DNA from: Escherichia coli
GTDB lineage: Bacteria > Pseudomonadota > Gammaproteobacteria > Enterobacterales > Enterobacteriaceae
Strand: one strand, 5' to 3'
NCBI RefSeq assembly: GCF_046105845.1
Contig: NZ_CP151004.1
Length of the DNA stretch: 64,000 nucleotides
Part shown: piece by piece, positions 7,274-54,956 of the stretch
Numbering within the stretch: position 1 is the stretch's first letter
How the letters are laid out: every line of letters starts with the position of its first letter
Made by a program: the position numbers and the translations under genes
The notes under the pieces: model-generated
The model's input: only the letters and a program-made list of their open reading frames with translations
Database searches by the model: none
What the model was told of the DNA's origin: nothing

Positions 7274-8002
7274 TCAGGCAAACCAAGCGGTCCAGGCGGC
7301 GGAAAGCGGCATTGCCAGAAGGAGTGCTGGAAGCATGTTGACCACCGGGAACATTTTAATGCCACAGATGCGTAATCCGGTTGCCAGCAGCAATAAACCG
7401 CCTACGGCGCTGAAGTCTGCCATCATCGACGGTGTGGTCAGCGGTAATATCAGCGCGGCAGCCCACGCCAGCGTTAACTGGATGATCAGTAATGGGATAC
7501 TAATCACCGATACCGCAATACCCAGCGAGCAGGCGAAGATCATCGCCGTAAAGAAATCAAGAAATGACTTGGCGATTAAAATACTCGGATCGCCGGTCAT
7601 CCCTTCGTTCATTGCCCCGAAGATCCCGGTGCCGCTGGCGCAAAACAGGACAATAATCGCGACATAATTCTGAATAAAAGATTCATGCGCTGGCTTCTTA
7701 CGTGAGTGGCGAAACAGATTTTGTGCTTTGGTGACCGCGGTATTGACGCCTTTTTCCAGCAGACAAATTTCGCCGATTAATGCACCGAGTAAGGTTGCTA
7801 ACACCATCGCAGGAAGGTTGGCGCATTTCACCACCAGTAAAATACCAATCCCCAGCGATGCCAGACCAAAAATTGATGTCATGGAGACGCGGATACGTTC
7901 CGGTAAGCGTTGGCTAAGGAGTGCACCGAGAACGCCACCCAGTAATACTGCACTTGCGTTGATAAAAGGACCGATGACCACAAGAGTTCCTGTTAGCTGC
8001 AT
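7274..8002 (-). CDS. yqgA: DUF554 inner-membrane protein YqgA
   Basis: 242-aa hydrophobic ORF between pheV and speC, as in K-12. Confidence 0.85.
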   Translation of the reverse strand: MQLTGTLVVIGPFINASAVLLGGVLGALLSQRLPERIRVSMTSIFGLASLGIGILLVVKCANLPAMVLATLLGALIGEICLLEKGVNTAVTKAQNLFRHSRKKPAHESFIQNYVAIIVLFCASGTGIFGAMNEGMTGDPSILIAKSFLDFFTAMIFACSLGIAVSVISIPLLIIQLTLAWAAALILPLTTPSMMADFSAVGGLLLLATGLRICGIKMFPVVNMLPALLLAMPLSAAWTAWFA

Positions 8003-17929: not shown

Positions 17930-18012
17930 CACTTCAGACTTACGTCCATTGCCAATTTTCATTACCCTGATGATAATCACTGGAATAAATTATTCCGCGA
18001 GAGGGTTTTCGG

Positions 18013-19020
18013 GTGAAAAAGCAATGGATTGTTGGCACGGCGCTGCTTATGTTGATGACTGGTAATGTCTGGGCAGATGGCGAACCGCCAACTGAAAATA
18101 TCTTAAAAGATCAATTCAAAAAGCAGTATCACGGCATTCTCAAGCTTGATGCTATCACCTTAAAAAATCTTGATGCTAAGGGTAATCAGGCCACCTGGTC
18201 AGCGGAAGGCGATGTCTCTTCCAGTGACGATCTCTATACCTGGGTCGGTCAGTTGGCAGATTACGAACTGCTCGAACAGACCTGGACGAAAGATAAACCG
18301 GTAAAATTCTCGGCGATGTTAACCAGTAAAGGAACGCCCGCGTCTGGCTGGTCGGTGAACTTTTACTCTTTTCAGGCGGCAGCCAGCGATCGTGGACGGG
18401 TGGTCGACGATATCAAAACGAATAATAAATATCTGATCGTGAATAGCGAAGATTTCAATTATCGCTTTAGTCAGCTTGAGACTGCGTTGAATACCCAGAA
18501 GAACTCGATTCCTGCGCTGGAAAAGGAAGTGAAAGCGCTTGATAAGCAAATGGTGGCGGCGCAGAAAGCAGCGGATGCATATTGGGGAAAAGATGCAAAC
18601 GGTAAGCAAATGACCCGCGAAGACGCATTTAAAAAAATTCACCAACAGCGTGATGAGTTTAATAAACAGAACGATAGCGAGGCGTTCGCGATTAAATATG
18701 ACAAAGAGGTTTATCAACCGGCGATTGCGGCATGTCATAAACAGAGTGCAGAGTGTTATGAAGTGCCGATTCAGCAGAAGCGAGAATTCGATATCAACGA
18801 ACAACGGCGACAGACTTTTCTGCAATCACAAAAAATTAGCCGTAAATTGCAGGATGACTGGATAACGCTCGAAAAAGGGCAATATCCGTTAACGATGAAA
18901 GTTTCAGAAATAAACAGTAAAAAAGTCGCGATTTTGATGAAAATTGACGATATCAATCAGGCTAATGAACGCTGGAAAAAAGATACCGAACAATTGCGGC
19001 GCAATGGAGTGATTAAGTAA
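18013..19020 (+). CDS. yggM: DUF1202 periplasmic protein YggM
   Basis: 335-aa ORF, GTG start, signal peptide. Confidence 0.88.
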   Translation: MKKQWIVGTALLMLMTGNVWADGEPPTENILKDQFKKQYHGILKLDAITLKNLDAKGNQATWSAEGDVSSSDDLYTWVGQLADYELLEQTWTKDKPVKFSAMLTSKGTPASGWSVNFYSFQAAASDRGRVVDDIKTNNKYLIVNSEDFNYRFSQLETALNTQKNSIPALEKEVKALDKQMVAAQKAADAYWGKDANGKQMTREDAFKKIHQQRDEFNKQNDSEAFAIKYDKEVYQPAIAACHKQSAECYEVPIQQKREFDINEQRRQTFLQSQKISRKLQDDWITLEKGQYPLTMKVSEINSKKVAILMKIDDINQANERWKKDTEQLRRNGVIK

Positions 19021-41666: not shown

Positions 41667-41692
41667 AAGGGCCGCGAAAGCGGCCCTTTTTT
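41667..41692 (+). terminator. Rho-independent terminator of tktA
   Basis: GGGCCGC-GAAA-GCGGCCC followed by TTTTTT; the T-tract overlaps the stop codon of the convergent SPFH gene. Confidence 0.75.
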
Positions 41693-42591
41693 ACTTGGTG
41701 GAGATAAACGGAACTGTGCTGCCGGGGATCATGGTATCGGGTAGCTTACCGTCCCAACGCTCTGCAGTGGTTAGGGCAACAAGTCCGGGATTATCCCGCA
41801 GAGCTTCACCGCGCAGGCGGATAGCTTCTGCTTCAGCCGCACTTTTTAAACGAATAGTTTCAGCCTCTGCCGCGCCTCTTACGCGAATAGTCTCAGCTTC
41901 TGCTTTGGCTGCCGCCAGTTTACTGTCTGCTTCAGCCTGGGCCTGAGTTACTGCTATTTGCGCCTGGATTTTCTCTGTTTCCAGATTTTGCTTACGTGTG
42001 GCAATGGCGACTTCTGCTTTCATTCGATCTTCAATCGATTTTTCATAAGCGTCAGAAAAATCAATATTTTCAATCTGGACACCATCAATCACCACCGGGC
42101 CAACAACGGCTTTACGCATTGCATTTTGCAGATCCTGAACCAGTTTTGTACGATCCTGTACCGCGCTGATGGCGGTATATTGGCCGAAAACGTTCTCCAG
42201 TTGAGTTGGCAGCTGGCGGACGATCAGACGCTCTTTTAAAGATTCAATGGTGTTGTAGGTTGTATAAACTGCGCCAGCTTCTGAAGGTTTAATGTGGAAG
42301 CTGACTGATACTGTCATTTGTGCCGGTTGCTGGTCGCGGCTGTAGGCCCTGATAAACCACAGCCTGATTACGCGTGGAAATTTTCTCCACGCTTTCCATA
42401 AAAGGGATCTTAAAACCCAGACCCGGCTCGGCAACTTTTACGATTTTTCCGTAGCGCAGCAAAATGCCGCGTTCACCTTCATTAACGGTGTAATACGAGA
42501 GAAATGGCAGCACAACCACGGCAAGCACGCCAATGACGATAGCAATAGATTTTTGTGGGCGAAATGAGGTTATTGAAACAGGTGCTTTCAT
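41691..42591 (-). pseudogene. SPFH/band-7 (stomatin/prohibitin-like) membrane protein gene split by a frameshift
   Basis: N-terminal part (TM helix, EGERGILLRYGKIV, PGLGFKIPFMESV) in ORF 42289..42627; remainder (VSVSFHIKP..., coiled-coil Ala/Glu-rich tail) in ORF 41691..42434 in another frame; RBS AGGAAG before ATG 42591. Confidence 0.75.
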
Positions 42592-47102: not shown

Positions 47103-47612
47103 ATGGCGACGCTGACAGAAGATGATGTGCTTGAGCAACTGGATGCACAGGACAATTTATTTTCATTTATGAAAACTGCGCATTCTATTTTGCTCCAGGG
47201 GATACGCCAGTTTCTGCCGTCGCTGTTTGTCGATAATGATGAAGAGATCGTCGAATATGCAGTGAAGCCGTTACTCGCCCAAAGCGGCCCGCTTGACGAT
47301 ATTGATGTTGCACTGCGTTTGATTTATGCGCTGGGAAAAATGGATAAATGGCTGTACGCCGATATCACCCATTTTTCCCAGTTCTGGCATTACCTGAACG
47401 AACAGGATGAAACGCCCGGATTTGCCGATGACATGACCTGGGATTTTATCAGCAACGTCAATAGCATAACCCGCAATGCGACTCTCTATGACGCGTTGAA
47501 AGCGATGAAGTTCGCCGATTTCGCCGTCTGGTCAGAGGCGCGTTTTAGCGGGATGGTCAAAACGGCGCTGACGCTGGCAGTAACGACAACCTTAAAGGAA
47601 TTAACGCCGTGA
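47103..47612 (+). CDS. yggD: MtlR-like regulator YggD
   Basis: 169-aa ORF. Confidence 0.85.
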   Translation: MATLTEDDVLEQLDAQDNLFSFMKTAHSILLQGIRQFLPSLFVDNDEEIVEYAVKPLLAQSGPLDDIDVALRLIYALGKMDKWLYADITHFSQFWHYLNEQDETPGFADDMTWDFISNVNSITRNATLYDALKAMKFADFAVWSEARFSGMVKTALTLAVTTTLKELTP

Positions 47613-48322
47613 AAATCGAACTGACGGTGAATGGACTAAAGGTACAGGCGCAGTACTCTGATGATGAAATTGAGAATGTTCATAAACCGCTACTGCGTAT
47701 GCTGGCGGCCTTACAGACGGTAAATCCGCAGCGGCGTACGGTGGTTTTTCTTTGCGCTCCGCCGGGGACGGGTAAATCTACCCTAACCACCTTCTGGGAA
47801 TATCTCGCGCAACAAGACCCGGAACTACCCGCTATTCAGACACTCCCGATGGATGGTTTTCACCATTACAATAGCTGGCTGGATGCGCATCAATTGCGCC
47901 CCTTCAAAGGCGCACCAGAGACATTTGACGTTGCGAAACTGGCGGAAAATCTGCGCCAGGTCGTGGAAGGGGATTGTACGTGGCCGCAGTACGATCGACA
48001 AAAGCATGATCCTGTTGAAGATGCGTTGCACGTTACCGCACCACTCGTCATCGTCGAAGGAAACTGGCTATTACTGGATGATGAAAAGTGGCAGGAGTTG
48101 GCATCTTTCTGCGATTTTTCTATTTTTATTCATGCACCTGCTCAAATTCTGCGGGAGCGCTTGATTAGTCGTAAAATTGCGGGAGGATTATCGCGGCAAG
48201 AAGCCGAAGCTTTTTATGCCCGAACCGATGGTCCCAATGTCGAGCGTGTGCTGGTGAATAGTCGTCAGGCCAATCTGATATTAGAGATGACCGAAGAAGG
48301 CAGATATCACTTCAAAAGCTGA
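47609..48322 (+). CDS. yggC: P-loop kinase-like protein YggC
   Basis: 237-aa ORF with Walker A (PPGTGKST); ATGA overlap with yggD. Confidence 0.85.
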   Translation: MKIELTVNGLKVQAQYSDDEIENVHKPLLRMLAALQTVNPQRRTVVFLCAPPGTGKSTLTTFWEYLAQQDPELPAIQTLPMDGFHHYNSWLDAHQLRPFKGAPETFDVAKLAENLRQVVEGDCTWPQYDRQKHDPVEDALHVTAPLVIVEGNWLLLDDEKWQELASFCDFSIFIHAPAQILRERLISRKIAGGLSRQEAEAFYARTDGPNVERVLVNSRQANLILEMTEEGRYHFKS

Positions 48323-48467
48323 CAATTTATTCCAGTTATTGCAGGGGGATTATTACGCCAGCCTGGAATAAAGCTCCCTACAAAAGGGGATAAAAGTGTG
48401 ATGTAAGTCAGATAAATGTCTTCTTCGGCTGGACAATCATTCCTTTTATTCCACGTTTCGCTTATCC

Positions 48468-48484
48468 TAGCTGAAGCGTTTCAG
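48468..48484 (+). promoter_or_regulatory. Cra (FruR) operator upstream of epd
   Basis: GCTGAAGCGTTTCAGTC matches the Cra palindrome GCTGAAWCGWTTCA, about 125 bp upstream of the epd ATG. Confidence 0.5.
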
Positions 48485-48606
48485 TCGATTAAATGTTCGA
48501 CAATTAACCAATCAGTCGCAGTTTGCGACAGGTAAGGTTTCCCCGAACGATTTGCTGGATTACTCTGTCAGGCAAATTTGCTCAGGGAAAACCTTGCAGG
48601 AGATCT

Positions 48607-49626
48607 ATGACCGTACGCGTAGCGATAAATGGCTTCGGTCGCATCGGGCGTAATGTGGTTCGTGCTTTGTATGAATCCGGACGTCGGGCGGAAATTACCG
48701 TGGTGGCAATCAACGAACTGGCGGATGCTGCGGGCATGGCGCATTTGTTGAAATATGACACCAGCCATGGCCGTTTTGCATGGGAAGTACGACAGGAACG
48801 CGATCAACTTTTTGTTGGTGATGACGCCATCCGCGTATTGCATGAACGTTCACTGCAATCGCTCCCCTGGCGTGAACTTGGCGTTGATGTAGTCCTCGAC
48901 TGCACCGGCGTATATGGCTCCCGCGAACATGGCGAAGCGCATATTGCCGCCGGGGCTAAAAAAGTGCTCTTTTCACATCCTGGCAGTAACGATCTCGATG
49001 CGACCGTTGTTTACGGCGTCAATCAGGATCAACTTCGTGCGGAACACCGCATCGTTTCTAACGCTTCCTGTACCACGAATTGCATAATTCCCGTCATCAA
49101 ATTGTTAGATGATGCGTACGGTATTGAGTCCGGCACTGTGACCACAATTCACTCCGCCATGCACGATCAACAGGTTATTGATGCATACCATCCTGACCTG
49201 CGTCGCACCCGGGCAGCCAGCCAGTCGATCATTCCGGTCGATACTAAACTGGCCGCCGGTATCACACGATTTTTTCCGCAATTTAACGATCGCTTTGAAG
49301 CGATTGCGGTACGTGTGCCAACCATAAATGTGACGGCAATCGATTTAAGCGTGACGGTGAAGAAACCTGTAAAAGCCAATGAAGTCAACCTGTTGCTGCA
49401 AAAAGCAGCACAAGGTGCATTTCATGGTATAGTTGACTATACGGAATTGCCGTTGGTCTCTGTAGATTTTAACCACGATCCGCACAGTGCCATTGTCGAT
49501 GGCACCCAAACCCGGGTCAGTGGCGCACACCTGATCAAAACGTTGGTCTGGTGCGATAACGAATGGGGCTTTGCTAACCGAATGCTCGACACGACGTTAG
49601 CTATGGCTACTGTTGCTTTCAGGTAA
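48607..49626 (+). CDS. epd: Erythrose-4-phosphate dehydrogenase
   Basis: 339-aa product from [15 protein letters not shown]; active-site SNASCTTN. Confidence 0.95.
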
Positions 49627-51052: not shown

Positions 51053-52132
51053 ATGTCTAAGATTTTTGATTTCGTAAAACCTGGCGTAATCACTGGTGAT
51101 GACGTACAGAAAGTTTTCCAGGTAGCAAAAGAAAACAACTTCGCACTGCCAGCAGTAAACTGCGTCGGTACTGACTCCATCAACGCCGTGCTGGAAACCG
51201 CTGCTAAAGTTAAAGCGCCGGTTATCGTTCAGTTCTCCAACGGTGGTGCTTCCTTTATCGCTGGTAAAGGCGTGAAATCTGACGTTCCGCAGGGTGCTGC
51301 TATCCTGGGCGCGATCTCTGGTGCGCATCACGTTCACCAGATGGCTGAACATTATGGTGTTCCGGTTATCCTGCACACCGACCACTGCGCGAAGAAACTG
51401 CTGCCGTGGATCGACGGTCTGCTGGACGCGGGTGAAAAACACTTCGCTGCTACCGGTAAGCCGCTGTTCTCTTCTCACATGATCGACCTGTCTGAAGAAT
51501 CTCTGCAAGAGAACATCGAAATCTGCTCTAAATACCTGGAGCGCATGTCCAAAATCGGCATGACTCTGGAAATCGAACTGGGTTGCACCGGTGGTGAAGA
51601 AGACGGCGTAGACAACAGCCACATGGACGCTTCTGCACTGTACACCCAGCCGGAAGACGTTGATTACGCATACACCGAGCTGAGCAAAATCAGCCCGCGT
51701 TTCACCATCGCAGCGTCCTTCGGTAACGTACACGGTGTTTACAAGCCGGGTAACGTGGTTCTGACTCCGACCATCCTGCGTGATTCTCAGGAATATGTTT
51801 CTAAGAAACACAACCTGCCGCACAACAGCCTGAACTTCGTATTCCACGGTGGTTCCGGTTCTACTGCTCAGGAAATCAAAGACTCCGTAAGCTACGGCGT
51901 AGTGAAAATGAACATCGATACCGATACCCAATGGGCAACCTGGGAAGGCGTTCTGAACTACTACAAAGCGAACGAAGCTTATCTGCAGGGTCAGCTGGGT
52001 AACCCGAAAGGCGAAGATCAGCCGAACAAGAAATACTACGATCCGCGCGTATGGCTGCGTGCCGGTCAGACTTCGATGATCGCTCGTCTGGAAAAAGCAT
52101 TCCAGGAACTGAACGCGATCGACGTTCTGTAA
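51053..52132 (+). CDS. fbaA: Class II fructose-bisphosphate aldolase
   Basis: 359-aa product from MSKIFDFVKPGVITGDD. Confidence 0.96.
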   Translation: MSKIFDFVKPGVITGDDVQKVFQVAKENNFALPAVNCVGTDSINAVLETAAKVKAPVIVQFSNGGASFIAGKGVKSDVPQGAAILGAISGAHHVHQMAEHYGVPVILHTDHCAKKLLPWIDGLLDAGEKHFAATGKPLFSSHMIDLSEESLQENIEICSKYLERMSKIGMTLEIELGCTGGEEDGVDNSHMDASALYTQPEDVDYAYTELSKISPRFTIAASFGNVHGVYKPGNVVLTPTILRDSQEYVSKKHNLPHNSLNFVFHGGSGSTAQEIKDSVSYGVVKMNIDTDTQWATWEGVLNYYKANEAYLQGQLGNPKGEDQPNKKYYDPRVWLRAGQTSMIARLEKAFQELNAIDVL

Positions 52133-52156
52133 GTCATTCCTTTCTGCTTATCTCAA

Positions 52157-52181
52157 GGCCCGCTCTGCGGGTCTTTTTTTC
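52157..52181 (+). terminator. Rho-independent terminator of fbaA
   Basis: GGCCCGC-TCT-GCGGGTC followed by TTTTTTT. Confidence 0.7.
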
Positions 52182-52322
52182 GCCAAAAGCAAGGTGATAC
52201 AGATGAGAAATCTGTGATCTATTTGGCAAAATTATGCTTTATTGTTTACCCTTGTCAGACTGCCCGTCATAAGGCGGCGGAGTGTATTTCTCCATTTTGA
52301 GTCAGTTGAAAAGGAATATTGA

Positions 52323-53183
<861 letters not shown>

Positions 53184-54790: not shown

Positions 54791-54956
54791 TACTTGTAGC
54801 CCGACGTATTGGTCGGGCTAATGCCTTTACCCGATATTGCCTCCTTTTTCTGTAATTTTCTGTAAAACCATGACGTAATCACCTATCTTTGCTCGCGGTT
54901 TCATCAAGGATAGGCTGACTGAAACGGTTAAGCGGACAAGGATGCGGGGAGCGGGG

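Follow-up and report, generated by a model that had tools for sequence, protein, structure and literature searches.

In Escherichia coli K-12, ChIP-exo analysis finds Cra (FruR) over the -10 box and start site of the epd promoter. CRP acts at epd from an upstream class I position, and repression by Cra overrides activation by CRP (PMC5888115). The promoter string has been published as ...CGCTTATCCTAGCTGAA / ...CATTCCTTTTATTCCACGTTTCGCTTATCCTAGCTGAA, transcription starting 132 nt upstream of the ATG (PMC2759082, Table 1), and the sequence AGCTGAAGCGTTTCAGTC, taken "from epd gene", has been moved as a portable operator that brings pBAD under Cra-dependent repression (PMC8363753). On the upstream side of epd, E. 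coli W carries "cbiQ-O2 in the region epd-yggC", which is absent from K-12, B and C (PMC3032704). Two further kinds of described system are relevant to this intergenic region. Stable stem-loops lacking a run of U are documented as the steady-state ends of Rho-terminated E. coli transcripts (PMC6061677), and at template-switch or quasi-palindrome junctions a short inverted copy of a neighboring sequence, capable of forming a hairpin, stands at the edge of a deletion or replacement.

The region compared here with these systems is the yggC-epd spacer of a 64,000-nt stretch of DNA, hereafter the window. The window is E. coli chromosome: a 701-bp query covering the yggC-epd region (48100..48800) has a match in 5425 of 5426 complete E. 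coli genomes. Over this query the identity to K-12 is 96.9%, and the lineage of the window is a non-K-12 one. yggC, the final gene of the cmtBA-yggP-glpX(yggF)-fumE(yggD)-yggC block, ends with a TGA stop codon at 48320..48322, and the ATG of epd is at 48607. The two genes and the elements of the epd promoter are as follows.

47609..48322, plus strand: yggC coding sequence, 237 aa, nucleoside/nucleotide kinase family (ORF list and RefSeq annotation of matching E. coli records).
48397..48412, plus strand: CRP site TGTGAtgtaagTCAGA, centered at -70.5 (class I), with one mismatch to TGTGA-N6-TCACA; activation is published (PMC5888115).
48463..48468, plus strand: epd -10 hexamer TATCCT, placed by its position relative to the published start site and by the published promoter string (PMC2759082).
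48469..48486, plus strand: Cra (FruR) operator AGCTGAAGCGTTTCAGTC, assigned by consensus match, experimental literature and conservation.
48475, plus strand: transcription start (A) of epd-pgk-fbaA, from Table 1 of PMC2759082 mapped onto the window.
48476..48606, plus strand: rest of the structured epd 5' UTR, including a long hairpin (48534..48595) just before the ribosome-binding site.
48607..49626, plus strand: epd coding sequence, 339 aa.

A preliminary description of this DNA had recognized a Cra palindrome upstream of epd and placed it at 48468..48484. The sequence and its fit to Cra hold, but the coordinates need correcting, the true position of the palindrome GCTGAAGCGTTTCAGTC being 48470..48486. 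The 16-bp palindrome of the operator occupies 48470..48485, that is, -5 to +11; the operator abuts the -10 box and overlaps the start site, a position that fits repression. GCTGAAGCGTTTCAGT agrees with the published Cra consensus gcTGAAtCGaTTCAgc at 15 of 16 positions (PMC5888115). The core TGAANCGNTTCA matches the consensus core exactly and is its sole exact copy in the 64-kb window, while GCTGAANCGNTTCAGC finds a single match in the window at up to one mismatch, about 0.35 being expected at up to two. Elsewhere in the window, a weaker Cra-like sequence with two mismatches, ACTGAAACGGTTAAGC (54918..54933), falls at the 3' end of yggE by alignment with K-12 and is probably due to chance.

The assignment to Cra combines the published consensus and the experimental literature with phylogenetic footprinting, for which 78 Enterobacterales epd loci were taken from GTDB species representatives. 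Of these 78 loci, 70 retain the core and 62 the extended GCTGAANCGNTTCAG. Variation in the core is restricted to the N positions of the consensus and affects mostly the first of them; the second is T in 69 of the 70. A CRP-like site stands at a fixed 75-76 nt from the Cra core in 27 loci. Within E. coli the promoter is nearly invariant, with a single variable position between ~48440 and the ATG among the window, K-12, EC958 and O157:H7. Control of epd-pgk-fbaA by Cra, which the preliminary description had invoked, is borne out by published experiments: the 18-mer of the window is the one used as a portable operator (PMC8363753), and the K-12 ChIP-exo signal covers this promoter (PMC5888115). 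At the mapped K-12 site, moreover, the two sequences are the same, with 100% identity across the promoter. Not only the 18 bp but also their distances from the -10 box, the start site and the CRP site are identical, as is the antagonistic Cra/CRP logic of PMC5888115; there is no difference of substance in the window. By its sequence and placement, then, the palindrome is the known, already characterized Cra operator of the epd-pgk-fbaA promoter. With fructose phosphates scarce, Cra bound here would occlude RNA polymerase and so override class I activation by CRP from TGTGAtgtaagTCAGA. This is a textbook operator, in use in synthetic biology, about which nothing further is needed.

Two observations concern the transcript that starts here. 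The epd 5' UTR (48475..48625) has a predicted folding energy of -47.3 kcal/mol (z -3.3), and K-12 Term-seq data contain an RNA 3' end at 3073682, corresponding to about 48616 in the window, 9 nt inside epd.

The second element pointed out in the preliminary description was a 9-bp inverted repeat at 48327..48370, with a 26-nt spacer, for which a role as another protein-binding site had been suggested. The repeat exists, but it is longer than described and its coordinates differ: two perfect 10-bp arms, TTTATTCCAG at 48326..48335 and CTGGAATAAA at 48363..48372, are separated by 27 nt, and the 9-bp arms TTATTCCAG and CTGGAATAA correspond to 48327..48335 and 48363..48371. The repeat begins 4 nt past the yggC stop codon. 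The window has 11 perfect inverted repeats of at least 10 bp with a spacer of 3-40 nt, where first-order Markov simulations give 2.2 +/- 1.4, and the bare 10-bp repeat is only mildly non-random. A separate perfect inverted repeat, of 13 bp with a 25-nt spacer (CTGGGAAAAATGG / CCATTTTTCCCAG, 47331..47381), lies within the fumE (yggD) coding region. The features on which the discussion of the spacer turns are these.

48060..48385, no strand assigned: deeply diverged "cassette-less" segment, which stands where cassette-bearing strains have their own yggC 3' end (~62-66% identical to it) and a 3.2-kb five-gene ECF-transporter cassette.
48314..48356, plus strand: 43-nt indel AAAAGCTGACAATTTATTCCAGTTATTGCAGGGGGATTATTAC, a single gap against Enterobacter-type yggC-epd loci, with an inverted match to 7971..7990 of the EC958 locus (L001).
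48326..48335, plus strand: left arm TTTATTCCAG, invariant in seven alleles (E. coli, E. fergusonii and E. albertii).
48363..48372, plus strand: right arm CTGGAATAAA, which includes the old TGGAATAA box; the CRP site follows 24-25 nt downstream of the box.
48445..48453, plus strand: third copy of TTTATTCCA, inside the core promoter at -30 to -22.

The yggC-epd spacer of the window is matched throughout in 2094 of the 5426 E. coli genomes; the others match only from ~48386 onward. In EC958 and O157:H7, five minus-strand genes lie between yggC and epd, in a 3.2-kb cassette (L001 4774..8000). Their products are a PCC-domain protein, the substrate-specific (S) component of an ECF transporter, a transmembrane (T) component recognized only weakly, below threshold, as CbiQ-like, and a pair of ABC ATPases. 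In cassette-bearing strains yggC shares its final 29 nt with the ATPase gene that converges on it. The cassette is present in ~61% of complete E. coli genomes and in the species representative of E. albertii, and is missing from the window and from K-12. This is the identical presence/absence polymorphism reported with E. coli W, the window belonging to the absent class; the anatomy of the junction and the inverted repeat are undescribed in that report (PMC3032704). By the blastn breakpoints (48293/48386), 92 bp of the window (48294..48385), with the whole repeat inside, stand for 3227 bp of cassette DNA. A 107-bp segment around the repeat is found only in the 2094 cassette-less genomes, and its occurrence once per genome rules out a dispersed repeat of the REP/BIME, MITE or IS-end kind. 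The cassette-less arrangement, repeat included, is also found in E. fergusonii and in some E. albertii.

The two haplotypes differ by more than the presence of the cassette. In identity profiles, the agreement between the window and EC958 drops from ~97% to ~62% near 48060, and because of this fall the segment ~48060..48385 must be regarded as a deeply diverged allele. A clean deletion of the cassette was rejected on the same ground: the last ~260 bp of yggC (~48060..48322) are only ~62-66% identical between haplotypes, a divergence of genus level, as against ~95-97% for the remainder of the gene. The alignment suggests that this 3' segment is an old recombinant or imported allele, common to E. 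fergusonii and some E. albertii. The end of yggC has also been a site of insertion in the cassette-less E. coli strain CP8-3_Sichuan, where an IS1A (L087 788..1485) occupies the extreme 3' end of the gene, a few bases before the repeat.

Across genera, the general state is one in which tktA adjoins epd. The ECF cassette is next to epd in Escherichia, Citrobacter, Pseudescherichia and Superficieibacter, and in several of the lineages with this arrangement tktA and the cassette are separated by the cmt-yggC block. In EC958, the spacer that parts the transporter operon from epd (L001 7851..8000) contains a second CRP-like site, CTGATataagTCAGg, and a good minus-strand -10 sequence, TATTAT, features suggesting that the ECF operon is transcribed divergently from a promoter dependent on CRP; no Rfam riboswitch matches this spacer. 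The half-site of the epd CRP site itself also varies, reading TGTGA (48397..48401) in the cassette-less haplotype and CGTGA (L001 8012..8016) in cassette-bearing E. coli and E. albertii. Since this half-site and the sequence upstream of about -90 both differ by haplotype, CRP activation, and with it the strength of this glycolytic promoter, may differ as well.

Comparison with other genera also indicates where the two arms came from. In EC958, Citrobacter, Kluyvera and P. vulneris, 24-25 nt separate the TGGAATAA box from the CRP TGTGA downstream of it, and this intervening sequence is unconserved. In Enterobacter-type lineages, where yggC (239 aa) adjoins epd directly, the gene ends in the same box (...ATG GAA TAA). 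Judged by these alignments, the right arm is the old, conserved TGGAATAA box found upstream of epd. As to the left arm, global alignment of the window with an Enterobacter-type locus contains one gap of 43 nt, and excising these 43 nt restores a yggC end ...RYHFASLE*, to be compared with ...EYTFARME*. Both the stop codon that yggC now has and the left arm come from this 43-nt indel, whose reverse complement copies the TGGAATAAATT box together with the flanking CTGCAA. Likewise, the reverse complement of 48324..48344 (CTGCAATAACTGGAATAAATT) matches CTGCAAAGTGGAATAAATT, which is the box and its flank in EC958. This inverted match is the top local hit in the 3.2 kb of EC958-specific DNA, is equalled in 4 of 500 shuffles, and falls at the positionally homologous site; when the 92-bp junction segment was compared with the cassette interior, nothing else stood out.

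We infer from these alignments that the left arm is derived from the box by inverted copying, most likely through a template switch or an inverted duplication. The resemblance to known template-switch and quasi-palindrome junctions lies in the short, hairpin-capable inverted copy of a neighbor at the edge of a deletion or replacement; here, copy and source are 27 nt apart. The 43-nt difference may reflect an insertion in this lineage or a deletion elsewhere. The original junction is beyond reconstruction because the event is old, being common to three Escherichia species.

We found that the arms of the repeat have been conserved within this diverged segment. Among seven alleles from the three species, 2 of the 20 arm columns vary, both in a manner compatible with G-U pairing, while about half of the columns in the flanks and central loop are variable. 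The left arm has no variable column out of 10, against 8 of 15 in the adjoining left flank. In RNA of the yggC sense, a hairpin folds in all five alleles submitted to prediction, at -12.6 to -17.4 kcal/mol (z -1.8 to -4.7). Its stem is A/U-rich and its loop 27 nt long, for a moderate stability. None of the stem pairs has undergone a compensatory double change across the seven alleles, so pairing has no covariation support.

These data point to the long-loop repeat being a lineage-specific junction structure of cassette-less Escherichia rather than, by itself, a second operator of epd. In the yggC-sense RNA, the arms would pair 4 nt after the stop codon and produce a stem-loop lacking a run of U. 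One could envision that such a structure blocks 3'-5' exonucleases and fixes the point, before the epd promoter, at which the mRNA of the cmt-yggC operon ends. By analogy with the stem-loops described by Dar and Sorek in 2018 (PMC6061677), which likewise stand directly after the last gene of an operon and have no U-tract, the repeat could be a protective 3' stem-loop of the Rho-terminated type in the yggC 3' UTR, the likeliest mechanism to our mind, though held tentatively and with a little less than even confidence. The yggC stem differs from those precedents in being A/U-rich, with a long loop, and less stable; no rut site was identified. Against a role for the hairpin, the K-12 Term-seq tables record no 3' end at the yggC 3' UTR, although the operon may be silent under the conditions used, and Enterobacter-type lineages have the same yggC-epd adjacency and do without any hairpin. 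Furthermore, the right arm is kept in lineages that have no left arm, so part of its conservation must have another cause. The overall reading that joins the known Cra operator to a cassette-less junction structure with a yggC 3' stem-loop strikes us as about evenly balanced between being right and being wrong. The population and comparative data explain the apparent "second site" as a structure of the haplotype junction, and what is new at this locus is its comparative context only: the cassette polymorphism, the diverged allele and a recurrent TTATTCC box.

It is also worth considering that this box is what matters, and that the repeat is a site at the DNA level, with TTATTCC/GGAATAA half-sites for a regulator or an architectural protein of the epd promoter. 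A span of 128 bp holds three copies of the 9-mer TTTATTCCA (at 48326 and 48445 on the plus strand, at 48364 on the minus strand), and the window holds five, where 0.6 copies are expected and none of 100 shuffles reaches five. Boxes of the cassette-less arrangement at -149..-140, -112..-103 and -30..-22 could support cooperative binding, or a DNA loop about the CRP site. The offsets from the Cra core are fixed across genera. Of 71 Enterobacterales loci, 35 have TTATTCC at -26 (48446..48452 in the window); a second direct copy stands at -90 in 11 loci and at -91 in a twelfth, four loci have a copy at -111 or -112, and six have one in inverted orientation at -106 or -107. The contrast already mentioned, between a conserved box and an unconserved 24-nt spacer separating it from the CRP site, is of the kind expected under this interpretation, and in vitro genomic SELEX assigns FlhDC (intensity 98), together with RNA polymerase flagged for H-NS, to the yggC-epd spacer. 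However, no known factor was matched to the TTATTCC box, and the FlhDC consensus scores no better here than in shuffled sequence. As a candidate FlhD4C2 box (a 42-44 bp palindrome, AAYGSSNNAAATAGCG-N10-12-CGCTATTTNNSSCRTT), the repeat scores 13/28 and was rejected, the best score of the region being 17/28 and the shuffle mean 16.8; an FlhDC box listed in PMC9962212 maps inside yggC (~48167..48210), at odds with its stated coordinate, and is not relied on.

Several of the conserved copies, moreover, have other possible reasons for being kept. The box belongs to the yggC stop codon region in Enterobacter-type loci, forms the edge of a larger conserved block that is part of the divergent transporter promoter in cassette-bearing loci, and may be retained in the epd promoter as core-promoter sequence. 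One natural allele alters the core of the box (CTGGGATAAA), and RNA pairing is retained in it. On balance, a DNA-level role for the repeat appears unlikely to us, although worth keeping in mind. The broader proposition is that TTATTCC/GGAATAA constitutes a factor-bound cis-element of epd-pgk-fbaA across Enterobacterales, with fixed offsets on both sides of the CRP site. Under this proposition, the copy at -26 would be present in about half of the loci and the second copy would sit at -90, at -111 or, inverted, at -106 according to the clade; cassette-less Escherichia would have gained a third, inverted copy, thereby forming the repeat. As a whole we consider this improbable; the TTATTCC box, conserved in its position about the CRP site of epd, is noted here as an inexpensive candidate for testing.

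A possibility of another kind is that the repeat has no function, being a neutral scar of rearrangement or recombination in the cassette-less haplotype, or in part a chance match. The repeat sits exactly on the junction of a structural variation, and about two such 10-bp repeats are expected by chance in each window. It is missing from ~61% of E. coli and from other genera that use the same Cra and CRP sites at epd. The lack of a yggC 3' end in the K-12 Term-seq tables, with the proviso given above, fits this possibility as well. Against a neutral scar, the left arm is invariant in the seven alleles of three species beside a flank in which more than half of the columns vary, both substitutions in the stem are compatible with pairing, and the hairpin is predicted in every allele. 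We find it doubtful that the repeat is functionless.

The last alternative, an intrinsic (Rho-independent) terminator of yggC, would account for a hairpin starting 4 nt after the stop codon but is very improbable, given the A/U-rich stem, the 27-nt loop and the want of a U-tract (the next bases are GCUCCCUACAAAAGGGG); a terminator scan finds no terminator-like site at 48326..48385, in agreement with the preliminary description, which had called the repeat unlike a terminator. Known RNA families were likewise discarded, a search of Rfam 15 with 48200..48700 returning only a chance snoRNA hit (E = 0.24) and, with the EC958 spacer, none. A scan of 48200..48700 for sigma-70 promoters was empty, which is weak evidence as the same scan also misses the real, CRP-dependent epd promoter.

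Returning to the preferred reading, in which the repeat marks a junction between haplotypes, we note that the cassette is not the only variable element of this part of the chromosome. An SPFH/Band-7 ("prohibitin family") gene, missing from K-12, occupies 41691..42434 on the minus strand, with tktA and cmtB on either side. A 1.5-kb query over this gene is matched over at least 80% of its length in 1816 of the 5425 E. coli genomes with a hit, making it a second presence/absence polymorphism of the tktA-epd interval, found in ~33% of E. coli genomes. The interval is now documented as a hotspot for presence/absence variation, with the ECF cassette in ~61% and the SPFH gene in ~33% of E. coli. Farther downstream, the fbaA-mscS spacer (~52100..52350) contains an indel relative to K-12, with 59% identity in a 250-bp bin, and the shorter spacer is also found in EC958. 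Finally, a half-site shared with the arms of the repeat recurs at 17981..17996 in a tight palindrome, TGGAATAAATTATTCC, which comes directly after a terminator-like hairpin and lies ~17 nt upstream of the GTG of a 335-aa ORF (18013..19020).
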